Positions 53,801 through 56,800 of a stretch of DNA of 64,000 bases are shown here, in pieces. Made by a program: the position numbers and the translations under genes. The notes under the pieces are model-generated. The model was given only the letters and a program-made list of their open reading frames with translations. It did no database searches and was not told the origin of the DNA. Each line of letters begins with the position of its first letter. Position 1 is the stretch's first letter. Source of the stretch: Eledone cirrhosa (Eukaryota). The stretch lies in the NCBI GenBank assembly GCA_964016885.1, contig OZ024762.1:12152001-12216000 (forward strand), read 5' to 3'.

Positions 53801-56800
53801 CCCCCCCCCACCCCGTCCTCTTCCCACAACCTTCTGTTGAAAATAACCAAACCTGTCCTACTGTGTGTATTTGTATATTATAGATTGTTGTATATATTTG
53901 TATATTATGTCTTGTAATGTTATTTAATACCAGCTTAGATCAGTAAGACCTTTATTTAACTTAGATACAGTGTTTCTAGGGCATTTTTAAAACGTGGGGG
54001 AGCTCATCTCTCAGATTTCTTCCTGAGAAGGAGAAAGAGATATTAGAGGGAGAATCAACCCCAGTACTTGACTGGTACTTTATATATACATATATATAAA
54101 TATATCAGGAGGCACATGGCCTAGTGGTTAGAGCATTGGCCTTGCAATCGAAAGGTTGTGAGTTCAATTCTCAGACCGGGTGATGTGTTGTTTCCTTGAG
54201 CAAGACATGTTATTTCACATTGCTCCAGTTTACTCAGCTGTAGAAATGAGATGATAGGGACTGGGGTCCATATCATTCCACTGCAAAGTGGTCGTGGAGG
54301 TGCCACGGCAAAAAAGCACCCAGCACTCACTGTAAATGAGGTTGGTGTTAGGAAGGGCATCCAGCTGTAGAAATCAAGCCAGCATCAGTTCCCGTCCCAC
54401 CCTTGCAAGCAGGGAAAAGTGGACGTAAAATGAAATGATGATGATATCACATAAGAAACGGAGAATCAGTGGTGCTACAAATAAGTTTTATTAGACATAT
54501 TACAATCGTTTCTCTGGCGACCAGCTCCAGGCACGTTTCTGATGTGATATCATACTCTGCTCTATAAGAGCATCGAGCGCTCAAATGCCCTACCGCTTAC
54601 GGACGCTTTAAGCATCCCACACCAATTATATATATATATATATATATATATATATATATATATATATATATATATATTGCTTTTAAATTCCCTTTCTGGT
54701 ATATTTTAGCAGTGGATTTGGTTATCGTGTTTTTGAGCTCTACTGATGAACGACTCCAACTGTGACCATTCCCACTGAAAGGTTTCGTGAAATAGTCTTT
54801 TAAAGACTATATAGAGCATTTGTAGTTTTTTCCAAATTGAAGGATGAGTATTTAAACTGTATTTTATTCTGAGTTAAGACTCTATTGGTTTTTTCCCTGG
54901 ATTTCACAAAATCTGTGGATAAAATCTCTGTCTTCATTTTTTAAAAATTGAGTTTGAATTATTTTCCCATATCTTACGTTAAATATTTTCCATTTTGACG
55001 TTATAGTCACTTATATATTGTGAAATACTGTTGGCTTCTTGCTCACATTAATTTCTTTATTTTCATTTATATATATAGATAGATAGATAGATAGATAGAT
55101 ATGAGGAGAGAGAGAGAAAGAGATGTAGAGGACGAATTGACCCCAATATTAGACTGGTACTCTGTTTTATATCAACCTCAGATGGGTGAAAGGCAAAGTT
55201 GAACTCAGAGAGCAGAAAGCCGAAACAAATACCACAAGGTATTCTGTCTGACATTCTAACAACTCTACTAATTTGCCACCTACCAAACAAAATTACAAGA
55301 ATGAACAGAATTAACATTGAAGACATTAACCCTTTAGCATTTAATCCAGCCGTATCTGGCCAGAATTCACTCACCTCTTTCTGTTCAAACTGACCATAAC
55401 TTGCTACTCATACTGATGTTAAGGTATTGTTCTCAAAATATATAATATCAAAACCTCATAGATTTGATATTATGTGAAGTAAAACCTTTACTGTGAAAAT
55501 ACAATAGTATATATAGAGTAATGTAAATGTTATGTGAGGTAAAGCCTTTACTGTGAAAATACAATAGTATATATAGAGTAATGTAAATGTTATGTGAGGT
55601 AAAGCCTTTACTGTGAAAATACAATAGTATATATATAGAGTAAGGTAAATGTTATGTGAGAGATGTGAGGTAAAGCCTTTACTGTGAAAATACAATAGTA
55701 TATATATAGAGTAATGTAAATGCTAAAGGGTTAAAATTATTGACAAGATAGACTATAAATTATATTTTGTAAAACAATTGCTAATCAATTAAGATGTAAT
55801 TCTGGCTGGACAGAATATCTACAGCGAGTATTTTGTCTGTAGATGGAGTTTAAAGTATATATAAACTCCCCAAAGCCTCTGGTGTCTAACACATTGATAG
55901 AAGTAAGTCAGCCATGTTTGTGATCTGCTAGGCTTCTTTTATAATAGTAGTGTAGGTAACTATACTGTAATAGTAGTGTAGGTAACTATACTATAATAGT
56001 ATAGTAGATAGCTATACTATACTATAATAGTAGTGTAGGTTTAATGACACTCCGTCAGTTATGAGTGTTCCAGTTGATACAATCAATGGAACAGCCTGCT
56101 TGTGAAATTAACATACAAGTGGCTGAGCATTCTACAGACACGTGTACACTTAACATAGTTCTCAGGGAGATTCAGTGAGACAGAATGTGACAAGGCTGGT
56201 CCTTCCAATTACAGGTACATCTCATTTTTGCCAGCTGAGTGGACTGGAGCAACGTGAAATAAAGTGTCTTGCTCAAGGACAATGCATCACCGGGAATTGA
56301 ACTCACGACCTTATGATTGTAAGCTAAGTACCCTAACTACAAAGCTACACACCTGTAGGTAATTATATTAGTACAGTTGTAAGGTAATCAAGGTTGTTAG
56401 GAAATATGGCAGGTAAACAATATATTATTGTGTGTGTGTCTATATATATGTCTGTATATATATATATGTAAGTGTGTGTGTTTGTCTATATATATATGTA
56501 TGAGTGTGTGTGTGTCATATATATATGTATGAGTGTGTATATGTATGTGTGTGTCTATATATATGTATGTGTATGTGTGTTTGTCTATATATATATATGT
56601 TTGTGTATGTGTATATATATATGTGTGTGTAAGTTTAATCTCTTTCCCTCCCTCCAATTCTCACATTCACTAGAATTTCAGCTCTCTCTGGCCCCTACCA
56701 CACGTCTCACCCTATCTCTCTCTGACCCCTACCACACGTCTCACCCTATCTCTCTCTGGCCCCTACCACACGTCTCAACCTATCTCTCTCTGACCCCTAC

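Follow-up and report, generated by a model that had tools for sequence, protein, structure and literature searches.

Hammerhead ribozymes that lie in sense orientation within an intron raise the question of whether they serve the host gene, by cutting its pre-mRNA, or belong to a repeat that has inserted there. We address this question for an intron of REV3L in the octopod Eledone cirrhosa, which is contained in a stretch of 64,000 nt (hereafter "the window", i.e. the whole stretch of DNA that was analysed). In the initial annotation of this DNA the motif was regarded as the best candidate for an active self-cleaving element in the intron, whose cleavage could part the N-terminal portion of the transcript from the polymerase-domain exons. 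The motif is part of a ~627-nt repeat that in our view is very probably a non-LTR retrozyme, likely brought to a (TA)n run in the intron of REV3L by a Penelope-like element (PLE), and the copy found here is likely a neutral passenger of that gene.

The hammerhead motif and its host intron

The host gene is recognizable from the protein encoded by its giant exon, which is 96% identical over the searched region to a protein of Octopus bimaculoides and whose mollusc relatives carry the name DNA polymerase zeta catalytic subunit. Downstream of the window the same strand carries polymerase-B exons, one of which matches yeast Pol zeta with E = 4e-26. A Pfam search of the giant exon itself returned nothing useful; the exon contains long low-complexity tracts (poly-S, N, T and D) and, around residues 920-1130 of the frame, a block kept in other molluscs. 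The features of the gene and of the motifs in its intron are as follows:

40293..47400, +, giant (~7.1 kb) REV3L coding exon; 5' boundary set by eye from the AG, 3' boundary by an RNA contig
47401..60333, +, host intron GT...AG, 12,933 nt
60334..60373, +, REV3L exon of 40 nt; an RNA contig shows the junction
54737..54817, +, type I hammerhead ribozyme motif (sequence, descriptor scan, fold and family covariation), corresponding to unit positions 287-367 of the repeat described below
54737-42 and 54812-17, +, helix I, GCUCUA/UAGAGC, 6 bp (sequence and descriptor scan)
54743-49, +, core CUGAUGA (sequence and descriptor scan)
54750-53 and 54785-88, +, helix II, ACGA/UCGU, around a 31-nt insert (sequence and descriptor scan)
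54754..54784, +, helix II insert of 31 nt with a conserved GUG/CAC hairpin, complementary to the 5' flank
54789-92, +, core GAAA (sequence and descriptor scan)
54810 and 54811, +, U16.1 and A17; triplet AUA, with cleavage predicted 3' of A54811
58057..58107, +, second sense-strand hammerhead of this intron, borne by an unrelated repeat family at its 3' end

An intron of ~13 kb between the 7.1-kb exon and the 40-nt exon had been proposed and is present, with the hammerhead site 7,411 nt past the donor and 5,522 nt ahead of the acceptor. The junction 47400/60334 was found in one contig of the RNA-like run X4, derived from an animal that may lack the insertion. Since this contig joins the giant exon to the 40-nt exon, an mRNA spliced across the hammerhead intron exists in the species; as a single contig at the exon end, it carries no measure of the fraction of transcripts lost. 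In runs X1 and X2, contigs at the exon end read on into the intron. Run X5 yielded no contig on the giant exon, and among the reads and contigs at the hammerhead site, which are swamped by repeats, none spans the insertion, those of X5 included. Sequence of the repeat family occurs in X4 as short contigs, and the contig depth at 54770 and 54812 belongs entirely to the non-window allele (153.5/153.5), so that the family RNA seen in this run derives from other copies.

Sequence and descriptor agree with the annotated sense-strand hammerhead, its canonical core, its 6-bp helix I and its helix II, and the descriptor likewise places A17 of the triplet AUA at 54811, the site given before. The core is complete (C3-U4-G5-A6-N7-G8-A9, G12-A13-A14, A15.1-U16.1 and H17, in what we take to be the customary numbering of hammerhead positions) and constitutes the sole strict descriptor match within the window, while 60 Markov-shuffled windows contained no match as strong and loose matches at a rate of 0.03 per window. 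Folded in isolation, the 81 nt yield the hammerhead as the minimum free energy structure (-19.4 kcal/mol, z -2.88; as low in 0 of 200 shuffles), in line with the expected monomer-competent fold. The annotated 9-bp palindromic helix III, by contrast, had to be given up as a special feature of the motif. Helix III folds with 8 bp, including A15.1-U16.1, and a 3-nt loop; a ninth pair is impossible because the loop would shrink to 1 nt, and the palindromic look is due to a private T>A change in the loop of the window copy, present in 1 of 100 family pieces. The "long loop" noted for helix II does exist as the 31-nt insert but is not inert: it contains a hairpin that is conserved, and its sequence is complementary to that of the 5' flank. 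No hammerhead family was reported by Rfam for the motif, either at the gathering score or at E<=10, and its identification therefore depends on the descriptor, on folding and on covariation. The covariation among family members supports a structure of three helices with an open helix I that would be competent at the level of the family.

The second hammerhead of the intron has a helix I of 6 bp, a U.U at the base of helix II and the triplet GUA; the repeat that carries it has 1,086 candidates in the genome and a (TA)n end ~20 nt past the motif. Additional repetitive features were observed throughout the window. Two minimal hammerheads of PLE type with a short palindromic helix III are situated at 4773-4738 (-) and 3098-3056 (-), found with a relaxed descriptor that gives 0.025 matches per shuffled window. 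A repeat that occurs at 50316-50365 and 61205-61290 has GAAAC and helix-like arms, inverted in their arrangement, but lacks CUGANGA, and may represent a degenerate hammerhead-bearing end. Furthermore, there are copies of a tRNA-derived SINE at 33454-33395 (-), 54090-54445, 51240-51560 and 62170-62430 (a tRNA-like SINE head is the sole Rfam match in the window), minisatellite arrays at 21767-23450, 23783-24918 and 35216-36074 with periods of 48, 37 and 72 nt, respectively, and a composite array at 56660-57850.

A repeat unit of ~627 nt in two subfamilies

The hammerhead of the window belongs to a repeat with more than 2,000 genomic copies. A 221-nt query against the 3.0-Gb genome returned 1,767 candidates, which rules out a single-copy status of the motif, and 39 of 39 other places that were scored are 91-95% identical over nearly the whole query. 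The exact cleavage-site motif occurs at 467 genomic places in the form of the window's subfamily and at 1,621 in that of a sister subfamily (reversed controls: 0). A period of ~627 nt is defined by 3.2 head-to-tail units at one locus (L002); spacings of 626-633 nt are frequent among the first 100 motif matches listed, and arrays of at least three units occur, e.g. at L002 and L173. The parts of the repeat present in the window are the following:

54626..54677, unstranded, (TA)n run at the 5' truncation point
54678..55077, +, 5'-truncated unit copy of 400 nt (unit positions 231-627) with one hammerhead, 95% identical to the L002 tandem monomer
54710..54739, +, 5' flank of the hammerhead inside the unit; predicted partner of the helix II insert in a blocking hairpin or a short pseudoknot
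55066..55077, +, fixed unit 3' end, running into a short (TA)n and then (GATA)n

A further dispersed repeat with high read depth lies directly 5' of the (TA)n run, at 54446-54615.

We compared 148 distinct unit pieces from 120 loci, a set obtained by heuristic de-duplication in which segmental duplicates may be counted twice. Terminal 3' ends fall at unit positions 614-627 in 92 of 110 cases, i.e. ~265 nt beyond the cleavage site, and 73 of these 92 ends continue into TA/AT; in 38 pieces the next unit follows directly. Any target-site duplication would be masked by the (TA)n flanks. The 104 5' starts, by comparison, are spread from unit position 1 to 597. The dispersed copies are located on many chromosomes. 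Six-frame translation of the unit revealed no long ORF, its GC content is 33% (208/627), the ribozyme strand contains 41% U, and the circle that it would form is predicted to be strongly self-paired (z -5.8). Two candidates for additional unit features were rejected: a ~1.4-kb period at C1:162.56 Mb is the unit plus an unrelated flank, duplicated, and a short frame on the opposite strand of the unit gained no support from its translation as a GIY-YIG remnant.

The sister subfamily was traced from a second allele at 54812, which makes up about half of the depth in runs X1 and X21. It is 76-90% identical to the reference unit, and 28 of 28 scorable loci (30 were fetched) share the same 3' end. 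Among 32 distinct rows from both subfamilies, a helix I pair occurs as A-U in 14 and as G-C in 18, and a helix II pair as C-G in 20 and as U-A in 11; these two-sided changes are few and correspond to approximately two inherited events. Overall, 97% of the cells in helices I and II are paired versus 27-49% in slid controls. The core columns are near-invariant, with the free position N7 varying between U, G and C.

Variants common to at least five copies affect 1 of 46 columns of the core and helices versus 75 of 531 elsewhere (Fisher p=0.02), and private changes amount to 1.5% in the core, 1.9% in the helices and 1.6% elsewhere, at loci picked by flanking queries. Because shared variants spare the core and helices and private ones do not, the ribozyme is kept in the lineages that make copies and decays neutrally once inserted. 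An intact hammerhead is the norm of the family and ordinary for a copy: the descriptor is passed by 34 of 54 full-length copies of the window's subfamily (five truncated rows left out) and, slightly relaxed, by 20 of the 23 sister copies that have the 5' half. The window copy, whose nearest relatives are 96% identical (median 94%), departs from the majority nucleotide of the alignment column at 5 of 81 positions within the hammerhead and at 9 of 316 unit positions outside it, and these small numbers give no sign of purifying selection on it. A conserved fold of the whole circle gained no support, with two-sided changes in at least two copies at 6 of 189 predicted pairs and an alignment-fold SCI of 0.18 from a rough alignment; recurrent variants keep the pairing of the circle in 21 of 51 cases versus 104 of 495 for private ones (p=0.002).

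Predicted folding in the natural context and possible consequences for REV3L

Complementarity exists between the helix II insert and the 30 nt that precede helix I, and in the predicted ensembles the probability of the active fold is 0.45 for the hammerhead alone, 0.018 for 54700-54860 and 0.002 for the whole copy. With the 5' flank included, CUGAUGA is predicted to sit in or beside a long hairpin, a nested structure favoured by 2.5-7 kcal/mol in the thermodynamic prediction. Helix I has a predicted probability below 0.1 in 52 of 60 copies of the window's subfamily; in the sister subfamily this applies to 10 of 23 copies, another 11 of 23 exceed 0.5, and the blocking hairpin is thus predicted not to be general there. 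RNAalifold did not recover this hairpin from the family alignment, and its covariation is weak, as three recurrent wobble changes keep the pairing and two break edge pairs. Alternatively, the same complementarity might form a short activating pseudoknot, a class of structure that ViennaRNA cannot model. The candidate contacts, between UGGU and the apical loop and between UUG and CAA, are paired in 97-99% of both subfamilies, with no two-sided change, and are retained in the window copy. Pseudoknots between stem I and stem II are described as speeding many hammerheads (PMC3088659).

The copy could be a co-opted intronic regulator. It would then cut the REV3L pre-mRNA during transcription and so adjust how much full-length polymerase zeta is made, as is reported of the CPEB3 ribozyme for its own gene. 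In favour of this explanation are its sense orientation, a core and helices that are intact, and the stability of helix III, which suffices for a monomer fold. The copy also lies 5.5 kb ahead of the acceptor, so that a fast ribozyme would have time to act, the polymerase needing 1-3 minutes for such a distance at the mammalian rate. Moreover, an inverse relation between self-scission within introns and the efficiency of splicing has been reported (PMC10274809). The setting resembles that of amniote intronic ribozymes, namely the hammerheads of RECK and C10orf118 (PMC3088659) and the HDV-like ribozyme of CPEB3 (PMC10274809), which are described as sense motifs in long introns, kilobases before the next exon. 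These, however, are isolated and conserved across species according to the same sources, whereas here the hammerhead is found in more than 2,000 young copies and is neither single-copy nor visibly under selection in the copy concerned. We regard such a regulator as highly improbable, and the earlier notion of a gene-specific role in REV3L is not supported, because the copy is young and belongs to a large repeat family in which intact copies are normal, its hammerhead has drifted no less than its flanks, the prediction with the 5' flank present gives the active fold 2% or less of the ensemble, and spliced mRNA exists. What stands of the initial proposal is a structurally competent hammerhead, as judged from covariation in the family.

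An unselected insertion might nevertheless have a side effect, if it folds, perhaps via a pseudoknot that joins the insert to the 5' flank, and thereby cleaves nascent REV3L RNA to a measurable extent. The near-complete pairing of the candidate pseudoknot in both subfamilies, its retention in the window copy and the acceleration reported for such contacts in many hammerheads (PMC3088659) speak for this. On the other hand, the candidate pairs lack two-sided changes and the nested blocking hairpin is predicted to be the better structure. In addition, when four triplets were compared in one viroid hammerhead, AUA gave the slowest cleavage (PMC1636495), and only one of nine predicted Xenopus retrozyme dimers is reported to have cleaved in vitro (bioRxiv 10.64898/2026.07.22.740005). 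We therefore consider appreciable cleavage at this site unlikely, though less so than regulation. The neutral-passenger reading is preferred: in the pre-mRNA the 5' flank is made before the hammerhead, and the core is predicted to be trapped by it, so that cutting would probably be slow and splicing would proceed.

Retrozyme affinities and the putative mobilising element

The family works like a non-LTR retrozyme and shows the testable features of this group, namely head-to-tail units, a lack of coding capacity, low GC, dispersed copies and co-existence with a PLE (the clade label of the latter being assigned by eye), although in the window there is one truncated unit and not an array. Metazoan non-LTR retrozymes from mussel, coral and axolotl are likewise described as non-coding tandem units with one type I hammerhead each, a GC content under 50%, copies in the thousands, a lack of LTR structure, a predicted circle with strong self-pairing and PLEs in the same genome (Cervera & de la Pena 2020, PMC7229834). 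The present unit differs from those given there for invertebrates (~170-400 nt) in its length of ~627 nt, and from the helix III of 1-2 bp in its stable stem of 7-8 bp, accompanied by a helix II insert of ~31 nt; the predicted self-blocking of the ribozyme in the window's subfamily would also be unusual among animals according to that account. Vertebrate non-LTR retrozymes, treated as PLE derivatives by Li, Clavereau and Pollet (bioRxiv 10.64898/2026.07.22.740005), resemble the present family in forming dispersed monomers and short arrays, and our unit falls within their reported size range of 51-972 bp. The same preprint gives 44% of X. tropicalis retrozyme copies as intronic and pLTR homology for 24 of 57 Xenopus families, whereas here none was detected against one PLE family; its main text names no mollusc among the groups. 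We found no paper describing a cephalopod retrozyme, although supplements may list one.

A candidate for the mobilising element adjoins the L002 array. It encodes RT and GIY-YIG domains and is, as we take it from protein motifs judged by eye, a Neptune-like PLE; its protein had no match in Pfam and a weak GIY-YIG match only in PDB (E=0.49). This element is young and very abundant, with 23,952 candidate matches in the genome (the best 150 of which are 94-100% identical) and open frames of at least 761 aa at loci L064-L093 (e.g. L070:1-2283, +). It has a minimal hammerhead of its own, and its copies end in (TA)n mostly 150-166 or 204-220 nt past that motif (31 ends). This layout of a hammerhead, a fixed 3' end and (TA)n is the same as that of the unit, whereas the PLE ends are A-rich, unlike the 41%-U ribozyme strand of the unit. 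The two preferred 3' ends of the PLE are ~55 nt apart, reminiscent of the PLE "tail".

No homology between unit and PLE was detected with blastn or a covariance model in 29-30 PLE loci, all of one family, nor between the unit and the second hammerhead repeat of the intron. An autonomous parent with DNA similarity to the unit was not found when relatives were sought by DNA and by pattern, and in none of 150 unit loci, a sample biased to the best or first matches, does the 5' side continue into an ORF for RT/GIY-YIG. PLE coding pieces are present near 9 of the 150 unit loci, in all cases outside the units. At one locus (L141:686-2670), an inverted PLE tail is followed by an array of 1.5 units and the truncated 3' end of a second Neptune-like PLE; in this single case array and PLE meet on the same strand with no (TA)n spacer, which suggests template switching or, alternatively, a later insertion at a shared TA target.

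The unit could also be the pseudo-LTR of an autonomous PLE not yet found, the copies being its truncated 3' ends instead of a self-standing retrozyme. Among the traits of PLEs are a fixed 3' end past the hammerhead, truncation at the 5' side and a preference for (TA)n as target (PMC11167929, PMC8557442), and only the best-scoring copies were retrieved, so that a rare full-length parent could have been missed. As to the individual likenesses, PLEs are described with a type I hammerhead in the pLTR upstream of a fixed 3' end and "tail" priming, with 5' truncation and partial tandems, and with AT-rich or (TA)n targets (PMC4209133; PMC11167929; Neptune clade, PMC8557442); compared with the elements in these sources, the unit has no RT/GIY-YIG ORF and its hammerhead is monomer-competent instead of minimal and dimer-dependent. 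Copies that reach 5' beyond unit position 1 enter another unit and no ORF, arrays of at least three units exist, the PLE coding pieces lie outside the units, and the U-rich ribozyme strand stands against A-rich PLE ends. The pseudo-LTR explanation thus seems quite improbable to us, although not to the same degree as a regulatory function in REV3L.

We therefore retain the reading as a non-LTR retrozyme, for which the following life cycle may be proposed. Tandem source arrays would be transcribed, and their hammerheads would cut the RNA to unit length, which would then be circularised as in known retrozymes. A PLE protein would nick (TA)n and prime cDNA at a fixed AU-rich internal site ~265 nt 3' of the cleavage site, and copying would pass the cleavage site and the unit junctions until the enzyme drops off. 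Copying past these points would need a circular or an uncleaved multimeric template. PLE protein has been described to nick AT-rich DNA and to start cDNA at fixed internal sites downstream of the hammerhead (PMC11167929), and the insertion footprint of the unit fits this internal priming. The window copy, with one hammerhead and without unit positions 1-230, cannot alone release unit-length RNA.

A bolder extension, which we offer as speculative and rather doubtful, is that the octopod retrozyme hammerhead contains a built-in switch. The helix II insert and the upstream flank would keep the ribozyme off in pre-mRNAs and in the circle until it refolds, perhaps upon binding of the PLE protein, and a Neptune-type PLE that copies circular RNA by rolling reverse transcription would have left its record in the genome as the fixed priming, the read-through of the cleavage site and the PLE-retrozyme junction. 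If such a switch exists, thousands of intronic copies would be tolerated harmlessly; if rolling reverse transcription is performed by a PLE with open frames in the same genome, a long-proposed route of mobilisation would become directly testable in vitro.

As a regulator of REV3L the motif is probably unimportant, being one of thousands of repeat-borne hammerheads, with another in the same intron. Of modest interest in the family are the size of its unit, large by invertebrate standards, the unusual insert in helix II and an insertion footprint that matches internal priming by PLEs. The young and abundant PLE and the retrozyme in one genome form a concrete pair for studying how retrozymes move.
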